A DNA stretch of 64,000 bases from an uncultured delta proteobacterium. Its GTDB lineage: Bacteria; Desulfobacterota; Desulfobacteria; Desulfobacterales; SpSt-501. How positions within the stretch are numbered: position 1 is the first letter of the stretch; every line of letters begins with the position of its first letter. A program made the position numbers and the translations under genes. The stretch lies in assembly GCA_963700055.1 (NCBI GenBank), contig CAVOWH010000023.1:64201-128200 (forward strand), given 5' to 3'. The notes under the pieces are model-generated. The model did not search any database. It was not told the origin of the DNA and worked only from the letters and a program-made list of their open reading frames with translations. Below are positions 2,327 to 9,992 of the stretch, one piece after another.

Positions 2327-4150
2327 ATGCCCCAGATGAGTTTTCTAGAAGTTTACGGCCGGGTGCTCGGCCTGCTCAAGCCTGTGCGTGGGCTGGCGCT
2401 CGGCCTTACCTTCGCCAACCTGGGATTGGCGGCCGTGCCCTTTTTGGACCCCATCCTGTTCGGCAAGGCGATCGACCTGCTCACCCAGGCCTCCACGCGC
2501 GGGGCCGAGGCGACCTTCAAAGACGGCGTGAAGATTTTTGGTTTGTGGACGGCGGTCGGAGTGGGGGGCATCGTAGCCGGGATCCTGGTGTCTCTGCACG
2601 CAGACCGGCTGGCCCACCGCCAGCGCCACCATGTCAGCGCGCAATTCTTCGAACACGTGCTGCAGTTGCACTTGGCGTATCACCGCAGCTCCCACTCCGG
2701 CCGGTTGCTGAAGATCATGCTGCAAGGCGCGGACCACCTCTTCGGGTTGTGGCTCTCCATGTTCCGGGAGCACTTGTCCACGCTGGTGTCCATGCTGGTG
2801 CTGCTGCCCATGACCCTGTTCCTCAACTGGCGGCTCGCCTTGGTGCTGATGATCCTGCTGCTGGTCTCGGCGCTGCTCACCGGCTACGTCACGCGTCGTA
2901 CCCTCACGGCCCAGGGAGAGGTGGAGGCGCGTCGCAGCAACCTGGCGGAACGGGCGGGAGATGCCATCGGCAACGTGGTGTTGGTGCAAAGCTTCGTGCG
3001 ACTGTCGGCGGAGATGCGCATGATGCGCGAGGAGATCGAGCGCCTGCTCTCCGCCCAGTTCCCGGTGCTCAACTGGTGGGCGGTGGTGAGTGTCCTTCAG
3101 GGCGCGGTCGCGACCATCACGGTCATCAGTATTTTCGCCATGGGCGCCTGGCTCAACCTGAAGGGCGAGGCGACGGTGGGCGAGATCGTCACCTTCATGG
3201 GGTTCGCCACCCACCTCATCGGCCGCATGAACCAAGTGGTGGGATTTGTGAACAGCCTGTTCATGGACGCCCACGGCCTGGTGGAGTTTTTCGATGTGCT
3301 GGACATCGAGTCTGCCGTGCGCGACAAGCCCGGTGCGCGGCCGCTCGCCCCGGTCCAGGGCCGGGTGGAGTTCGACCACGTCAGCTTCGGCTACACCAGC
3401 CAGCGCAACGCCCTGGAGGATATCTCCTTCTTGGCCGAGCCGGGCCGGACCGTGGCCCTGGTGGGCGAGACCGGGGCCGGCAAGAGCACCGCGATGGGTC
3501 TGCTGCACCGGCAGCAGGATCCGCATTCGGGAACGATCCGCATCGACGGCATCGATATCCGCGATGTCACCCTTGACTCGCTGCGCGCGAACATCGGGGT
3601 GGTGTTTCAGGAAAGCATGCTGTTTTACCGCAGCATCGCCGACAACCTGCGCGTCGGCAAGCCGGACGCCAGCGACGCCGAACTAGAAGAGGCGGCGCGC
3701 CTTGCCTGTGCTCACGACTTCATTCTCTTACAACCCCGCGGCTACCAAACCCGCATCGGCGAGCGCGGTTCCACCCTGAGCGGCGGCGAGCGCCAGCGCC
3801 TCGCCATTGCCCGCGTGCGGCTCAAGAACCCGCCCATCCTCATTCTGGACGAGGCCACGAGCGCCCTGGACGCCACCACCGAAGCCCTGGTGCAGCAGGC
3901 CCTCCAGACCCTGATGCGGGGGCGCACCACATTTGTCATCGCCCATCGCCTCGCCACCATCCGCAGCGCGGACATGATCCTGGTATTCCAGAAGGGCCGC
4001 GTCATCGAGCGCGGGAGCTTTCAGGACTTGGTGCGACAGGGCGGCTTCTTCGCTCAGATGGTGGCGACACAGTTCCAGAACCCGGCGGCGGCTGATGGCA
4101 ACCCCTCTGACGGCTCGGCGGCCTTTAACACCCCCTCCGACAACATGTGA
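2327..4150 (+). CDS. ndvA: Cyclic beta-1,2-glucan exporter-like ABC transporter, fused permease/ATPase (NdvA/ChvA-like)
   Basis: N-terminus MSFLEVYGRVLGLL...DPILFGKAID and LFGLWLSMFREHL resemble NdvA/ChvA. Walker A GETGAGKST, signature LSGGERQ, Walker B ILILDE. Alternative start at 2336. Confidence 0.8.
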   Translation: MPQMSFLEVYGRVLGLLKPVRGLALGLTFANLGLAAVPFLDPILFGKAIDLLTQASTRGAEATFKDGVKIFGLWTAVGVGGIVAGILVSLHADRLAHRQRHHVSAQFFEHVLQLHLAYHRSSHSGRLLKIMLQGADHLFGLWLSMFREHLSTLVSMLVLLPMTLFLNWRLALVLMILLLVSALLTGYVTRRTLTAQGEVEARRSNLAERAGDAIGNVVLVQSFVRLSAEMRMMREEIERLLSAQFPVLNWWAVVSVLQGAVATITVISIFAMGAWLNLKGEATVGEIVTFMGFATHLIGRMNQVVGFVNSLFMDAHGLVEFFDVLDIESAVRDKPGARPLAPVQGRVEFDHVSFGYTSQRNALEDISFLAEPGRTVALVGETGAGKSTAMGLLHRQQDPHSGTIRIDGIDIRDVTLDSLRANIGVVFQESMLFYRSIADNLRVGKPDASDAELEEAARLACAHDFILLQPRGYQTRIGERGSTLSGGERQRLAIARVRLKNPPILILDEATSALDATTEALVQQALQTLMRGRTTFVIAHRLATIRSADMILVFQKGRVIERGSFQDLVRQGGFFAQMVATQFQNPAAADGNPSDGSAAFNTPSDNM

Positions 4151-4151
4151 G

Positions 4152-4193
4152 CAAAAAATTAGCGGCAGCGTGTAACCATACTGCCGCCGCTTT
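4152..4193. terminator. Hairpin between convergent genes, probable terminator
   Basis: Stem GCGGCAG...CTGCCGC with an A-tract before it and a short T-tract after it, immediately after the ndvA-like stop. Confidence 0.55.
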
Positions 4194-4251
4194 GGTGGGC
4201 TTCTCCTTGGCTTTGTTCGGTCAGGCGTTTTTGGTTCTTGTGAGCTACTCC

Positions 4252-5706
4252 CAATACTGTTCACTTAATAAAAAATTCGTGCTATCCTACTCCAACTCTA
4301 ACCGGGAGGTGGGCGTATGGCACGAACAATCGCAGAGCTCCCCAGAGGGAGCCGGATAACGGACTACATCAGTCTTGGGTTGATTGCCAAGGTATTTCCA
4401 CGGGAGAAGCTGCAATCGGTTTTGGCCGAAACAGGCAAAGAAAGCCTCCGGCAGCGGGAACTGCCAGCACACGTGGTGATTTACTATGTGATTGCGCTGG
4501 CTCTTTACATGAACAGCTCCTACCGCGAGGTTCTGCGCTGTCTGTTGGAGGGTGTCCAATGGTTGCAACTGCATCCGGGTGGTATCAAAGTGACTGGCAA
4601 ATCGGGCATTTCCAAAGCCCGCAGCCGACTGGGATCGGAGCCGATGCGGCGGTTGCATGATCAGACGGTCCGACCGATCGCCACGGCTGAGACACGCGGG
4701 GCGTTTTACCGCCAGTGGCAGATAGTGAGCATTGACGGAGCCACACTGGATGTCGCCGATGAGATCAGTACTGCGAAGACCTTCGGCCGTCCCGGGGCGA
4801 GCCGAGGAGCAAGTGCGTATCCGCAAATTCGGTTTGTTTCGCTGGTTGAAAACGGCACCCACGTTTTGTTCGGAACTCAGGTGGGAGCTTGCCGCTGCAG
4901 TGAAATTGCTCTGGCGCGTCAGACCATCACGCATCTGCGAACCGGGATGTTGTGTTTGGCAGACCGTAACTTCTTTAGCTATGAGCTTTGGCAACAGGCT
5001 CGGGCGACGGGCGCTGAGCTGCTGTGGCGGGTCAAAAAGAACCTGCGCTTGGCCTGCGAGCAGCGTTTGCCCGACGGTTCGTTTCTGAGCCGCATCTATG
5101 CTTCGCCGAGAGATCGCAGGCACCAGAGAAATGCTGTGCTCGTGCGCGTGATCGAGTATCGGCTGGAGGGGGTAGAGCAAAGCGAGCCCATCTATCGGCT
5201 GCTGACGAGCATTTTGGACCCTCAACAGGCACCGGCTCAGGAGCTGGCGGCGCTCTATCACGAACGCTGGGAGATTGAGACCGCCCTTGATGAGTTCAAG
5301 ACGCATCTGCGCGGAGCCCAGATTGTTTTGCGCAGCAAGACCCCGGAGCTGGTCTACCAGGAGTTCTATGGTTTGATGATGGCGCATTTTGCCATCCGGG
5401 GCCTGATGCACGAAGCGGCCCTGAAGGCCGATGAGGACCCAGACAGGTTGTCGTTCTTGCACGCCGTGCGGGTTATGCGCCGCAAACTGCCTTTGTCCAG
5501 CGCTATTCCCCCCTGCGGGGTGGATCGCTTTCCATGAGGCGGTCTTACAAGAAATCTTGCAGGAGCGAGTGGTTTCCAGTCGCAATCGGAGTATTCCGCG
5601 AGGCGTCAAGCGCAAAATGAGCAAATTTCCGCTGCGGAAACGGCATGCAAAATTGAAGTCCGTCTGTGTAGAAAAGTGCATTCAAATAATAAAGTGAACA
5701 GTATTG
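4252..5706 (+). mobile_element. IS4-family insertion sequence, 1455 bp
   Basis: Perfect 15-bp terminal inverted repeats CAATACTGTTCACTT (4252-4266 and 5692-5706). 10-bp target duplication GAGCTACTCC (4242-4251 and 5707-5716). Confidence 0.96.
4317..5537 (+). CDS. IS4-family DDE transposase; probable C-terminal extension in the +1 frame to 5697
   Basis: DDE motifs SIDGA and LADRNF, and YHERWEIE (YREK-like). Enclosed by the IS4 inverted repeats. Confidence 0.93.
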   Translation: MARTIAELPRGSRITDYISLGLIAKVFPREKLQSVLAETGKESLRQRELPAHVVIYYVIALALYMNSSYREVLRCLLEGVQWLQLHPGGIKVTGKSGISKARSRLGSEPMRRLHDQTVRPIATAETRGAFYRQWQIVSIDGATLDVADEISTAKTFGRPGASRGASAYPQIRFVSLVENGTHVLFGTQVGACRCSEIALARQTITHLRTGMLCLADRNFFSYELWQQARATGAELLWRVKKNLRLACEQRLPDGSFLSRIYASPRDRRHQRNAVLVRVIEYRLEGVEQSEPIYRLLTSILDPQQAPAQELAALYHERWEIETALDEFKTHLRGAQIVLRSKTPELVYQEFYGLMMAHFAIRGLMHEAALKADEDPDRLSFLHAVRVMRRKLPLSSAIPPCGVDRFP

Positions 5707-5709
5707 GAG

Positions 5710-6132
5710 CTACTCCCTTACTTCCGCTTTCATCTCCAGCTGTACATGTCCCCAGCCACCGCACATGGGTCCGACATCGAAACAGCCTGTCCGGTTGAAC
5801 ATCACCTCATTGGGGTCCCTGCCGTTCATTAGATTCTCAAAAAATGCATTTATTAGCACCGTCAGATTCGGCATCAAAAAGGCGCAAACGCGATCGGGAG
5901 ATTCCTGGGTCAACAGGTTGCCGGCGGAGTCGAAGACGATGCGCTGTCCGACCACATGCCCTGAATGGCATCCTTTTGAAGCTACGACCTCCGCTACAAG
6001 ACGGTAACGCGACCCTTTTGCAGCATTTTCAAATAGCCGCTTGTATTTAGGGTTCCCCAGAACAGCAACCAGTTCCTCTCCTTCCAATGCTAATCGTCTC
6101 TTGATAATCTGGACCAATGTGTCTTTCTCCAT
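5710..6132 (-). CDS. Cassette-borne Cys-rich hypothetical protein (TIGR04076-like)
   Basis: Start MEKDTL after purine-rich AGGAAGGGAAG. Motifs GCHSGHVVGQ, DRVCAF, GCFDVGPMCGG. The longer ORF start runs through the attC site. Confidence 0.7.
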   Translation of the reverse strand: MEKDTLVQIIKRRLALEGEELVAVLGNPKYKRLFENAAKGSRYRLVAEVVASKGCHSGHVVGQRIVFDSAGNLLTQESPDRVCAFLMPNLTVLINAFFENLMNGRDPNEVMFNRTGCFDVGPMCGGWGHVQLEMKAEVRE

Positions 6133-6209
6133 TTGTCTTCCCTTCCTTGACTCAGATGGTTGGCTGAACGAACCCATTTTATCATGTGAGATACGGCGAA
6201 GGCGGAAAA

Positions 6210-6277
6210 TGCGAACGGAAAGCTGAGCTATAGGCGGGCGCCCTTTTCCGCCGATCCGCTCCAGCGCCTGGTTGGGC
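6210..6277 (-). other. Integron attC site
   Basis: Minus strand GCCCAAC-CAGGCGCTGGAGCGGA...AGCTCAGCTTTCC-GTTCGCA, an imperfect palindrome starting 3 nt after the upstream stop codon. Confidence 0.8.
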
Positions 6278-6280
6278 AAT

Positions 6281-7012
6281 TCATGCTTTTGTTGCTCTCA
6301 GTGCTTGAAAAGCCATGGCGGCTTTGAGAAAGGCCACAATAACAGGATGAGGGTTGCCCGGCTCTGAAGACAACTGAGGAAGGAAGAGAGTTGCCAAAAA
6401 GAACGGATGAGAGACAAGCTCTACGATTCTTGCATTCCCATCAGAGTCCCTACCTACGGTGCTGAGATTGCCCCTCATGATATCGTGGCGGTAGTTTTCA
6501 TTGAGTCCGTAGTTGCAACTGAACTGCTCAGTGGCACGGTCCTTTCCAAATGTTTTGAAAGCTAAAGTGCCCGGCGTGATGAAAACCTCTTGTTGAATAC
6601 CGGCAAGAGAGCACGCAAGACGACTTATGACGAGAGCGGGAGAAGTGGGCGCTGTCTCCTCAAAATCAGCATCTCGTATGCCTGCAACATTTCGTGCATG
6701 CTCTACCAGAGCATACTGAAAACCACTTCAAGTTCCCAGAAATGGCAAGCTTAGCTCCCTGGCAAATCGGATTGCTTCCAATGCGCCGTTCATGCTCCTA
6801 TAAGGGCCTCCGGGAGCACAGAAAATACCATCGTATTCCACCAACTTAATTCGTGCTCGGTCGGCCTCCAACGTCTGCGTGGGAATCCATTCAGTACTGA
6901 CACCAAGAACCAGGGTTTCCGCCCCGTGACGCAGAGCTTCATTAGTTGCCCTGTGTGACGGTCGCTCTGCCTCATAGTCCCCGACAACCGCAATTGCTAC
7001 GCCAGAGTTCAT
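6281..7012 (-). CDS. CTP synthase C-terminal-like class I glutamine amidotransferase family protein; probable selenoprotein (UGA at codon 95)
   Basis: ORFs 6728..7012 and 6281..6478 share one frame and are interrupted only by TGA (6728-6730) in PFLGT*SGFQYA, the position of the nucleophile Cys in GTCGGFQ. A SECIS-like hairpin follows. Confidence 0.85.
6696..6716 (-). promoter_or_regulatory. Putative bacterial SECIS element
   Basis: Minus strand GTATGCTCT-GGT-AGAGCATGC: a 9-bp stem (one G-U pair) with a GGU loop, beginning 11 nt after the UGA. Confidence 0.75.
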
Positions 7013-7031
7013 CTTGTCCTTACATTTCGTT

Positions 7032-7088
7032 GCCTAACGCCGAGTTAATTGGCAGTCGTAGGCTGTCCGCTTGAACGACTGGTTGGCT
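7032..7088 (-). other. Integron attC site
   Basis: Minus strand AGCCAAC-CAGTCGTTCAAGCGGAC...ATTAACTCGGC-GTTAGGC. Its R'' (AGCCAAC) is the exact complement of the cassette's entry R' (GTTGGCT, 7962-7968). Confidence 0.88.
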
Positions 7089-7170
7089 CTTACTGTACTT
7101 TGAATAACTGCCGATTCTCCAAATTCGCCAGTAATATCAGAACTGACCGACATGGACGAAATGAATCACG

Positions 7171-7935
7171 CTAAAGCGTTTCTAATTTTTCAAGCAGCTT
7201 TTTCCTTGTCAGCAGCACGTAATCCCTGTCCGGTGCGAAAATTTCGAGCGTAATCGTGCCGTCATAACAGCCTTTCAGTGTCCTGATAAGATGTTCCCAT
7301 CGGATTAAGCCGACACCCATCGGCAGATGAAGGTCAGCCTGCCCGTTGTTGTCATGCAGGTGAACATGCGACAACCGGTCTTTGAACTCAACAATACACG
7401 CTGCCGGATCTTTGCCGTACAGGTTCAGATGCCCGGTATCAGCGTGAAAATCAATTTCCGGGTTCAGTTCCAGAATTTTTCGGATGTTTTTGATGCTGTC
7501 CCGCGGAGAGTCTGTAGATTCGTAAATGATTTTGACGCCAAAGTCCCTGGCAAAGGCTGAAAGGGTCTGAAGGGATTCCGTCTGATACGCGATGGCCTCG
7601 TCAGCCGTGAACAGTCCAAATGCCCAGTGAGCATGGACTGTGAGCTTATAACACCGAATGTTGCTGCAAAGCACCACATAGCGTTTCAGGATTTCAACCG
7701 CATTTTCTCTGAGGGGTTTGGACGGCGAGCCAATCGGCAGATACCAAGCGGTATGCCCGACGGCATCCAGCCCGTATTCATCCAGTGCGTTTCTCACACC
7801 TGCCGGATCAATCTGATGCGCTTCAGCTTTGTCTGCTTCAAAAAAGAGGTCGGCAAAGTCAAACCCGTTTTTGCCAATCCAATGAATTTCATCAACCATA
7901 TTGTTTCGGGGATACGTGGGGAATCCGATTTTCAT
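7171..7935 (-). CDS. Cassette-borne sugar phosphate isomerase/epimerase family (xylose isomerase-like TIM barrel)
   Basis: Start MKIGFPTYP. Metal-binding motifs DTGHL, HVHLHDN, DLHLPMG, TLEIF. Confidence 0.85.
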   Translation of the reverse strand: MKIGFPTYPRNNMVDEIHWIGKNGFDFADLFFEADKAEAHQIDPAGVRNALDEYGLDAVGHTAWYLPIGSPSKPLRENAVEILKRYVVLCSNIRCYKLTVHAHWAFGLFTADEAIAYQTESLQTLSAFARDFGVKIIYESTDSPRDSIKNIRKILELNPEIDFHADTGHLNLYGKDPAACIVEFKDRLSHVHLHDNNGQADLHLPMGVGLIRWEHLIRTLKGCYDGTITLEIFAPDRDYVLLTRKKLLEKLETL

Positions 7936-7961
7936 AGCACACTCTTGAGATTTTGGATTTG

Positions 7962-8092
7962 AGCCAACACTGCGCTTCACCCGCCGGACGGGCATCGCAG
8001 AAACCTTTGTAAAAAGAGATAAACTTTGATCTGCATCACCCTTGCAAAAAGCGCCGATGGAGCCCGGTCGGATATGCAAGCGCTTGTTATAA
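7962..8092 (-). other. Integron attC site (131 bp)
   Basis: Minus strand TTATAAC-AAGCGCTTGCA...GGTGAAGCGCAGT-GTTGGCT. R'' overlaps the TAA stop of the upstream gene. Confidence 0.88.
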
Positions 8093-8443
8093 GCCTTTCA
8101 ATTTAACTGTAAAAAAACGAAAGCCTTTGGATTTCATTTCCTCGAAGTTAGCTTCCGAAACGGGCAATCCTTCTTTGCGTGCAAGTGGATAAAAATTCTT
8201 ATACGACTCCTCATCAAAACCATAGGACGCACCAAGTTTAAGGCCTCTTAATATTTCTCCGAATCTGGTCTTTTTTACGGTGTGTCTTTTTTGCCCATCC
8301 GGTTCGATTTCTGACAGAAAAGCTTTCATAGCTCGAAGAGATCCAGATATTACACAGGCATCACCAGCATCTCCTGTGCATACAACTTCAGTAGGAGAAA
8401 CAAAGGCAAAATATCCAATTACCTTTCGACTGCGATCAGCCAT
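8087..8443 (-). CDS. Cassette-borne hypothetical protein
   Basis: AT-rich 118-aa ORF whose stop lies inside the attC R''. It fills the cassette. Confidence 0.75.
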
Positions 8444-8480
8444 ATGATTTTCAACTCTTTGTTTATCGATTGGCTTATAA

Positions 8481-8706
8481 TAAGGCGATCAAGGCCGCTG
8501 TGCGCCGTGTGGGTTTGACCAAGCGCATCAGCGCCCATACGTTTCGCCATTCCTTTGCCACCCACCTGCTCCAGCGCGGCACCGACATCCGCACGATTCA
8601 AGCCCTGTTGGGACATAGCGATCTTGCCACCACCATGATCTACACCCACATCCTGCAGCAAGGCGGCCATGGCGTACCCAGCCCTCTTGACGACCTCGGT
8701 GTGTGA
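8481..8706 (+). pseudogene. intI: 3' remnant of integron integrase
   Basis: [73 protein letters not shown] contains the tyrosine recombinase HxxR/H/Y residues and an IntI-type C-terminus. It is divergent from the attC cassettes and the N-terminal part is absent. Confidence 0.88.
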
Positions 8707-9123
8707 TCGGCTCTGTGGAAGCAGACAAAGTGCTTCACCAGATGCGGGGTGCATTGGCTGTAATGGCGAATACACGGCAACTTGCAGTTTTGCTCTGGTG
8801 CTCCATGAGCGGGCATCACCCGGCGGGGATGAGGCTGCGGGCTGGAATCGGGATGGTCGCGGACGGATGACGGTGCTTGCGTTCTGCATGACACCACTTT
8901 GGAGCGTCCTCTTGCCACAAGCCGAACGGTTAATGGATCGGAGAGGAAAATGCGTATGAAGGCTATAATGAGGGTCTGGAAAAGGCAAGCGGGTTATGGC
9001 GGAAATCCGAATGATGGCTTGGTCTGACCCAAGGAGCCCCGGAATTTCAGAATCCAGCGCAAGGTGATCACAGCCCAAGCCACACTGAACCCGAATTTCC
9101 AGCTCCCTCAGACAGTATGTGAA

Positions 9124-9171
9124 CAAAAAGAATTGGCGGCAGCAAGCATGCGCTGCCGCCAATTCTTTTTG
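9124..9171. terminator. Perfect 20-bp inverted repeat, probable bidirectional terminator
   Basis: CAAAAAGAATTGGCGGCAGC-aagcatgc-GCTGCCGCCAATTCTTTTTG. Confidence 0.75.
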
Positions 9172-9222
9172 CACGTCCATGCTTAAAATAAAAATGCGCC
9201 GCCCGCGCAGCAGGCGGCGTTT

Positions 9223-9804
9223 TTATTTTACACGTTCGGCCTTGAGGATCATGACGGTGTCGGCGGGCACGTCCTGGTGACCGCCGCGGTTGGTCGTCTT
9301 GACCTTGGCGATGGCGTCCACGACCTCCATGCCCTCCACCACCTTGCCGAAAACAGCATAGCCCCAGCCCTGAACGGTCTTGTTCTTAAAATCCAGGAAA
9401 TCGTTGTCCACCAGGTTGATGAAGAACTGGGCCGTCGCGCTGTCCGGCACCTGGGTGCGGGCCATGGCGATCGCGCCGCGTTGGTTCTTCAGGCCGTTGT
9501 CAGCCTCGTTTTTGACCGGAGACTTGGTCGGTTTCTCCTTCATGCCGGCGGTCATTCCGCCGCCCTGGATCATGAAGTTGGGGATGACACGGTGGAAGAT
9601 GGTGCTGTTGTAGTGGCCGGCATCCACGTAGTCCAAAAAGTTCTGGACGGTCTTGGGTGCCTTGTCCGGGTAAAGCTCGATCACGATCTTGCCCTTGTCG
9701 GTCTCCAGCGCAACCTTGGGACTGTCGCCGGCGGCCGCCGGCGACACGGCAGCCAGGACGCTGAGTGCTGAAATCCATGCAAATTTCATAATCACGTTCT
9801 CCAT
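9223..9804 (-). CDS. ppiA: Exported cyclophilin-type peptidyl-prolyl cis-trans isomerase
   Basis: [19 protein letters not shown]...[18 protein letters not shown]-terminal signal peptide. Confidence 0.93.
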
Positions 9805-9992
9805 TCGGTGAATTTAAATGCCCCTGCAAAATAACCGATAATCCCGTCAAGTCAAGCTATCTGCCGGAGAGCAATTGACGCCGGCAGCCGGTGCTGATAG
9901 AGTCCGTATCCAGCCGACCCTGCGTCCGTTTTTCGGAGAGGGGCGGTGTTCGCCCCTCGCCCCGCCCGACTTACAGAAAGGGGTGGCCTCCC

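Follow-up and report, generated by a model that had tools for sequence, protein, structure and literature searches.

Cassette arrays without an integrase occur about as often as complete integrons, and how they arise is debated. The window analyzed here, a stretch of 64,000 nucleotides, holds a short cassette array whose first cassette abuts the tail of an integron integrase gene (intI). This raises the question of how the array came to lose its enzyme. The initial annotation had proposed that recombination between an attC site and a secondary site within intI excised attI and most of the integrase gene. Our results make it likely that intI was cut internally by integrase-type recombination, which left the array without its enzyme.

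RESULTS

Homology to intact intI begins at the Asn259 codon

The integrase sequence in the window consists of the following features.

8479..8706, plus strand: intI remnant, codons 259-333 and the stop codon of an integron integrase
8479..8481, plus strand: junction codon AAT (Asn259), placed by blastn starts in 58/69 loci and by the cassette start at 13 loci

The called open reading frame at 8470-8706 (plus strand, 78 amino acids) is this remnant preceded by three foreign codons (L/M-A-Y). Profile TIGR02249 matched it over model positions 242-315 of 315 with 117.6 bits (XerD, 86.9 bits). This is below the curated cutoff of 265 bits, which is exceeded by intact relatives (436 bits for the protein P0001 and 431.6 bits for metagenome locus L039). 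Because the remnant covers only positions 242-315 of TIGR02249, it is a fragment and not a member protein. The match to Pfam Phage_integrase spans profile positions 110-169 of 172. The remnant keeps MIYTH and one further C-terminal catalytic motif, both invariant in a comparison with 12 relatives, and we take these conserved motifs to be the catalytic motifs of tyrosine recombinases. The IntI-specific extra segment between the conserved patches presumably lay upstream of residue 259, in the deleted part.

In a search of a protein collection, intact 333-residue integron integrases were 96-99% identical to the 75 residues of the remnant. When the intact P0001 (333 amino acids) was compared with the whole genome by tblastn, residues 259-333 matched at this locus with 98.7% identity, and there was no match at this locus upstream of residue 259. 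At the nucleotide level, we compared positions 4100-9300 by blastn with 80 metagenome loci retrieved with P0001, of which 69 matched and 11 did not. The alignment started at 8479 in 54 loci, at 8478 in 4, at 8484 in 1, and at 8510-8553 in 10. Thus, with starts at 8478/8479 in 58 of the 69 matching loci, homology to the intact gene begins at the first base of the Asn259 codon. None of the 80 loci had a blastn match within 4100-8477, and the frame of the remnant continues upstream into stop codons and sequence without homology. The initial annotation had named intI homology upstream of 8478 as one of the observations that would count against its reading; the frame check, blastn, and tblastn all found none. 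Its statement that attI and the 5' part of intI are gone from this locus also stood, as nothing at 4100-8477 matches the intact intI loci.

Of the 59 intact relatives whose alignment reaches codon 259, 54 have AAC there and 5 have AAT, a count from which the 10 later-starting and the 11 unmatched loci are excluded. This Asn259 codon is mostly preceded by ATC. With AAC usually following ATC, the cassette strand of the intact gene reads CTTG↓TTGAT (↓, crossover point or boundary). The GTT that had been predicted from an AAC codon at this asparagine is therefore found in 54/59 of the intact relatives aligned. In the intI gene of L039, the triplet AAC occurs 16 times, whereas the hexamer ATCAAC occurs only twice, at codons 103-104 and 258-259.

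Relative to intI of L039, the remnant is 93.9% identical in nucleotides and 73/76 in amino acids, with differences of 2/2/10 by codon position. Such differences indicate little decay, as expected of a fairly recent cut. A consensus scan of 7900-9250 gave no sigma-70-like promoter.

Cassette 1 begins where the intI remnant begins

On the other side of the junction lies the first cassette.

7968..8480, minus strand: cassette 1, starting with TTATAAGCC and ending at the G of G↓TTGGCT (7968)
8087..8443, minus strand: open reading frame of cassette 1, 118 amino acids, with its stop codon inside R''
7968..8095, minus strand: attC of cassette 1, 128 nt, with R'' GGCTTATAAC at 8095-8086 and the 3' end ...GGGTGAAGCGCAGTG

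The minus strand reads A↓TTATAAGCC at 8481-8472 and GGCTTATAAC at 8095-8086, exactly as first annotated, and a repeat search recovered the two strings as a 20-nt inverted repeat of 80% identity (pair I20). The cassette start TTATAAGCC is complementary to the cassette's own R'' (GGCTTATAA). The terminal stem of this attC, AACAAGCGCTT / AAGCGCAGTGTT, is present in the centroid fold, the energy of which is no better than that of shuffled sequences (z, -0.85 [-0.47]).

Pfam and NCBIfam contained no family for the 118-residue cassette protein. It has 137 homologues of similar length in many phyla, with identities of up to 94%. Two cysteines were invariant among 23 aligned members of this protein family. 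Scanning one genome per species, we obtained 46 loci of the gene in other genomes from many phyla. The exact sequence TTATAAGCC lies 22-38 nt before the ATG in 10 of the 46 loci and is present with one mismatch in 3 more. In 13 of the 46, the gene stands behind x↓TTATAAGC(C), and the DNA 5' of this boundary is unrelated between loci. Across the 13 loci the base before the cassette start is G in 10 and A in 3 (L121, L125, and L129). R'' (GCTTATAAC) overlaps the stop codon of the gene in a dozen loci, and the 4-kb flanks of 6/46 loci contain an IntI gene. At L127, an attC homologous to that of cassette 1 follows the same gene and ends ...GAAGCGAAGCA↓TTAGACC (...GCA↓TTAGACC). Judged by these loci, cassette 1 is evidently a real and widely spread mobile cassette with a canonical integron crossover boundary.

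The start of the intI remnant, given by blastn and tblastn, and the start of the first cassette, given by the 13 cassette loci, coincide exactly, which bears out the observation from which the initial annotation had set out. The TT of the cassette (8480-8479, minus strand) overlaps the AA of intI (8479-8480, plus strand), and only these two shared bases are ambiguous. This two-base overlap is what a crossover at x↓TT requires. The crossover would lie between 8480 and 8481, with AA coming from the cassette start and T from intI.

The junction is present in another strain

Parts of the stretch occur in 20 public runs; we compared positions 5708-9900 with Logan contigs of four runs from four studies. 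A 234-nt contig of run X3 (record 22) spans 8280-8513 with 5 mismatches, with 201 letters on one side of the junction and 33 on the other. With 5 mismatches, this contig derives from another strain. The possibility of an assembly chimera, for which confirmation by spanning sequence had been proposed, is thus answered by a metagenome contig that bridges the junction in one piece. The junction is real DNA and is not peculiar to one assembly. Two contigs of run X1 match from 8482 on and are preceded by ACCCCAGCGTGATCAAC, which is the intact form with AAC. The contigs of run X2 break at 8474-8481 and are uninformative on the junction.

The triplet in the window is ATT, and it is GTT in 54/59 intact relatives and in the intact form of run X1. 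The initial annotation had entered this A, in place of G, as a caveat. The A is indeed present, but the objection it raises is weak, since A precedes the cassette in 3 of the 13 other arrays. Frumerie et al. (2010, PMC2811028) found that the two partners need only agree in the first base of the GTT triplet, whichever base it is. The consensus of genomic target sites is given as GWT in the part of the preprint by Loot et al. at hand (bioRxiv 10.1101/2022.09.11.507474). With A before TT at 3/13 cassette boundaries and AAT in 5/59 relatives, the odd A may plausibly be explained either by an ATT × ATT event or by a later C-to-T change.

The array lies in a 4.9-kb insert

The remaining features of the array and its surroundings are as follows.

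7038..7967, minus strand: cassette 2, starting with TTGGCTC after G 7968 and ending at the G of G↓TTAGGC (7038)
7171-7935, minus strand: xylose-isomerase-like TIM-barrel open reading frame of cassette 2
6271..7037, minus strand: cassette 3 region, starting with TTAGGCAA after G 7038
5710..6132, minus strand: fourth cassette-type open reading frame, 140 amino acids, 38% identical to the first cassette open reading frame of the integron on contig C4
4251..5707, plus strand: IS4-family element (Nterm_IS4 and DDE_Tnp_1) with 19-nt inverted ends (pair I7)
8707..9104, no strand: ancestral 3' flank of the intI lineage, with homology to genome G007 and to L039
4133..4192, no strand: left copy of a direct repeat, the real 3' end of the ABC transporter gene and a hairpin
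9105..9171, no strand: right copy of the direct repeat, the last 18 nt of the ABC transporter gene and a terminator hairpin (pairs I3 and I17)

The block at 5708-8480 has a G+C content of 0.42-0.53, against surroundings near 0.6, and contains four minus-strand open reading frames. The start of cassette 2, TTGGCTC, is complementary to GAGCCAAC (GAGCCAA) at 7089-7082. In cassette 3, the R''-like TTGCCCAAC at 6279-6271 (TTGCCCAA) has one mismatch to the start TTAGGCAA. The glutamine-amidotransferase-like gene of this cassette lies in at least two frames (7012-6728 and 6478-6281, minus strand), of which Pfam GATase matched the first (E, 4.3e-4) and not the second. Split over frames and with a weak GATase match to one piece, it looks broken. 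Contigs from other runs stop matching at 7968 (X4), 7966 (X2), and 7032 (X3). These ends are cassette boundaries, so the cassettes sit in other contexts in other samples. One X1 contig stops at 7083, inside the R'' of cassette 2.

The array thus has three attC-type boundaries (8480, 7967, and 7037), and the intI sequence adjoining it is only the 75-codon remnant. By these boundary sequences, as distinct from an IntegronFinder call, it belongs with the CALINs (at least two attC sites without a nearby integrase). The genome also contains a complete integron on contig C4 (L001, C4:473950-477894), with a 318-residue integrase that scores 475.6 bits with TIGR02249 and is 52.7% identical to P0001. 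The first attC of the C4 integron folds strongly (z, -3.17). The initial annotation had described the array as frozen by the loss of intI. This was too strong: an intact integron integrase is present on C4 and the attC boundaries are still in place, so the array need not be frozen.

The ABC transporter gene (2327-4150) and the peptidyl-prolyl isomerase gene (9223-9804) on either side of the array are direct neighbors at 6 loci of 5 same-genus relatives, spaced by about 80-170 nt and in one by about 480 nt. Because the two genes are adjacent in relatives, approximately 4193-9104 is an insert of 4.9 kb. It comprises the IS element, the cassettes, the intI remnant, and the flank and is bounded by the 60- to 67-nt imperfect direct repeat. 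Candidate origins of this repeat pair would be integration at a classical att site or recombination at a G↓TTCACAT that adjoins the stop codon. The array picture drawn in the initial annotation is to be corrected accordingly, in that the whole unit is an insert absent from relatives. The IS4-family element has a 9-bp target duplication, GAGTAGCTC (minus strand, 5716-5708 and 4250-4242), and identical copies of its ends occur on contigs C12, C8, and C13; it entered the array end later.

Downstream of the remnant, 8743-9010 is 86% identical to G007:C44, and 8707-8890 is homologous to the flank of the intact intI gene of L039. A 44-nt core (8890-8847) differs by 0-2 changes among the window, G007, and L039 and is single copy in this genome. 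The conserved flank is absent from the other 79 intI loci retrieved with P0001, and among 401 genomes of the order, 8707-9100 was found in G007 only. Rfam gave no credible family for the flank in the whole window at gathering thresholds or in 7900-9300 with E up to 1; matches to CsrC and RcsR1 were far below the cutoffs and were discarded. No tRNA or tmRNA was found.

Further remnants break at the same hexamers

The same genome has a second remnant of the lineage, on contig C5. C5:25923-26028 corresponds to intI codons ~70-104, with 81% DNA identity, 64% protein identity, and differences of 2/8/10 by codon position relative to L039. Next to it, 25822-25914 matches the attI region of L039 (84%), a region that is homologous to DNA in G007 as well as to C5. 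The differences of 2/8/10 and a protein identity of only 64% mark the C5 sequence as an old pseudogene. Judged by these substitution patterns, the window remnant is young compared with it. According to one DNA comparator (L039) and a protein alignment, homology on C5 ends exactly after ...CCGATCAAC, that is, at codon 104 in the first ATCAAC. Beyond the junction lie 59 unrelated bases, in which no attC was recognizable, and then a Fic-family gene. The neighbors of the Fic gene differ among relatives, so an empty site is not definable. The stretch C5:25822-26028 (L238:6323-6529) is found with a cassette array that has a BrnT toxin family gene and an IS110-family transposase. With breaks at codon 259 in the window and at codon 104 on C5, both remnants of the lineage in the genome break at the two ATCAAC hexamers.

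The initial annotation had recommended a search for other remnants cut at the same codon next to cassette starts. We inspected the N termini of the best 120 short relatives of the remnant (42-137 amino acids). In P0241 (97% identical) and P0257 (MRAQYESHTL↓NKAIKVAV), an unrelated N terminus is fused exactly before Asn259, both junctions being read at the protein level. P0344 is fused one residue after this point and P0279 four residues before it. P0261 and P0271 are internal deletions. Many short proteins start at V257/I258 or at other Val/Met codons, and we judged these to be gene-caller starts on broken genes or at contig ends; start-codon choices of this kind are uninformative.

In 401 genomes of the class, the best 150 TIGR02249 matches were all intact, and 360 matches lay beyond these. 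Fifteen class genomes with a fragment as the best match were searched again, and the 7 loci aligned showed internal deletions, contig ends, and other breakpoints. L214, a candidate for an Asn259 cut, was an N-terminal piece fused to a C-terminal piece. The 75-residue remnant matched in 111 of 401 genomes of the phylum, and none of the 20 short-frame candidates inspected there was cut at Asn259. The search for similar cuts thus returned two protein fragments and, in 35 genomes that seemed good candidates for fragments (15 of the class, 20 of the phylum), no further Asn259 cut next to a cassette.

The window's own genome has a third integrase C-terminal fragment, C12:161581-161751 (L003:1453-1815, minus strand), which is 67% identical to P0001 residues 263-319. 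It was not counted as a cut of the same type, because it begins some 4 codons further on and has a DDE transposase gene, and no cassette, next to it. G007 shows a different loss. Its locus (G007:C44, L037 ~1690-2240), downstream of a permease gene, has the flank, then the first ~30 intI codons, attI, and an array (a DUF4440 protein and others). A deletion without a GTT at its end has removed the remainder of intI together with 36 nt beyond the stop codon. Thus, plain deletions also occur in this lineage.

The breaks in the window, C5, P0241, and P0257 all fall at the two hexamers, which points to a site that may have been used more than once. What appears to be new here is the second remnant, on C5, apparently broken at codon 104, together with the two metagenomic fragments whose sequences place a fusion before Asn259.

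DISCUSSION

Proposed mechanism

Integron integrases reportedly recombine attC with secondary sites, as described by Recchia, Stokes and Hall in 1994 and by Hansson et al. in 1997. The mechanism proposed in the initial annotation, attC recombining with a secondary site in intI, is supported by our results, in that its predictions on the codon, the limit of homology, and the junction held. The ancestral integron at this locus would have had the order 3' flank, intI, attI, and cassettes, an order that the lineage retains in metagenomes (e.g., L039). An integrase, which may have been the product of the gene itself or that of the C4 integron, would have recombined two sites. The first would be the R' before cassette 1 (x↓TTATAAGCC), derived from attI or from the attC of an earlier cassette. 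The second would be the GTT or ATT of the Asn259 codon on the same strand, in the context CTT G↓TT GAT. Because the intI coding strand corresponds to the cassettes' bottom strand, the two sites form direct repeats, and because both point the same way, the DNA between them would leave as a circle. This circle would carry intI codons 1-258, the promoter region, attI, and any earlier cassettes. Left behind would be intI codons 259-333 and cassette 1, at the head of an array of about four cassettes with neither an integrase nor an attI of its own. We found neither the excised circle nor a reciprocal product. A single intramolecular excision of attI and most of intI, as originally proposed, is the most economical reading, and we infer it indirectly, from its products at this locus. 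In the available text of the preprint by Loot et al., genomic GWT sites serve IntI as recombination partners of attC, and DNA is deleted when excision takes place at genomic sites nearby (bioRxiv 10.1101/2022.09.11.507474).

Alternative explanations

The same end product could have arisen in two steps. A circle of cassettes (1 to 4) would have inserted at the GTT of codon 259, and 5' intI and the original array would have been lost afterwards, either in an unrelated deletion or when the insert formed. In the experiments described in the portion consulted of bioRxiv 10.1101/2022.09.11.507474, cassettes insert efficiently at GWT sites. Further rearrangement did occur at this locus, since no clear attC is seen at the array end (near 4193-4250) and the unit as a whole is bounded as an insert. 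However, this history invokes two events where one suffices. Moreover, the attC of cassette 1 is followed by cassette 2 with its own R'' (GAGCCAAC against TTGGCTC) and not by intI sequence, and there is no 5' intI DNA anywhere in 4100-8477. We regard this course of events as improbable.

An ordinary illegitimate deletion, by microhomology or replication slippage and with no integrase involved, would have to place both of its ends by chance. One end is the exact cassette boundary base defined by 13 other arrays, and the other is one of two ATCAAC hexamers in a gene of 1,002 nt. We put the chance of two random ends falling so at about one in ten thousand, which is a rough estimate and not the result of a computed test. 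The second remnant in the genome and the two protein fragments break at the same hexamers. Although a shared GTT or TT suffices for microhomology joining, and the G007 locus lost intI with no GTT at its deletion ends, these observations make such a deletion decidedly improbable. An assembly chimera of cassette and intI tail is hardly credible: the genome is a draft of 25 contigs and the X2 Logan contigs break at 8474-8481, but the two sides share only 2 bases and so offer no repeat to misjoin, and the 234-nt X3 contig covers 8280-8513 in another strain.

Cutting of intI by integrase-type recombination therefore remains the likely explanation. Beyond this, we put forward tentatively that the two GTTGAT hexamers in intI (codons 103-104 and 258-259), which have the strand and orientation of cassette sites, might be recurrent targets of self-cutting and that C5 might be a piece of a circle that was inserted again. 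As recurrent targets, they would mean that the enzyme occasionally cuts the gene that encodes it. The only two remnants that the lineage has in this genome and the two metagenomic fragments point to the same two hexamers. If this were true, each self-cut would leave an integrase-less array and a circle with attI, 5' intI, and the first cassettes, which could insert again elsewhere. Integrase-less arrays would then have, in self-cutting, a general origin that can be dated, and integron platforms would have a means of moving.

Comparison with known systems

With remnant and breakpoint both preserved, the locus shows one concrete route to integrase-less arrays, in which a single reaction of the integron's own type would remove attI along with the integrase gene. 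The question of origin also becomes countable, since genomes and metagenomes can be screened for intI remnants that have one end at a GWT triplet directly against a cassette start.

In sedentary chromosomal integrons with a dead intI, the inactivation is usually described as due to frameshifts, stop codons, or IS insertions. The present locus resembles them in being a chromosomal array whose integrase gene is dead, and it differs in the clean cut at a triplet abutting the cassette start. In the literature covered, which comprised sources other than subscription journals and supplements and included the accessible part of PMC12901181, we found no report of an integrase gene cut internally by cassette recombination. 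As far as their available text goes, Loot et al. favor insertion at genomic sites as the origin of integrase-less arrays (bioRxiv 10.1101/2022.09.11.507474).

Recombination of attC with a genomic site (attG) is similar to the event proposed here, in that the crossover falls at a three-base GWT target outside attI and attC and excision deletes the DNA between. In contrast to attG recombination, the target here lies inside the integrase gene and in a natural genome, and its first base is A and not G. Since it is the integrase gene that is hit, the reaction leaves an integron without its own enzyme and attI.

CALINs are defined as attC clusters lacking an integron integrase (Cury et al. 2016, in the consulted portion of PMC4889954), and the window has in common with them a short cassette array without a working integrase beside it. 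The same portion of that paper lists four routes of origin, "loss of intI" among them, and reports intI pseudogenes near 15/279 CALINs. Within that portion, no mechanism is given for the loss, whereas the remnant described here shows a breakpoint and points to an integron reaction as its possible cause.
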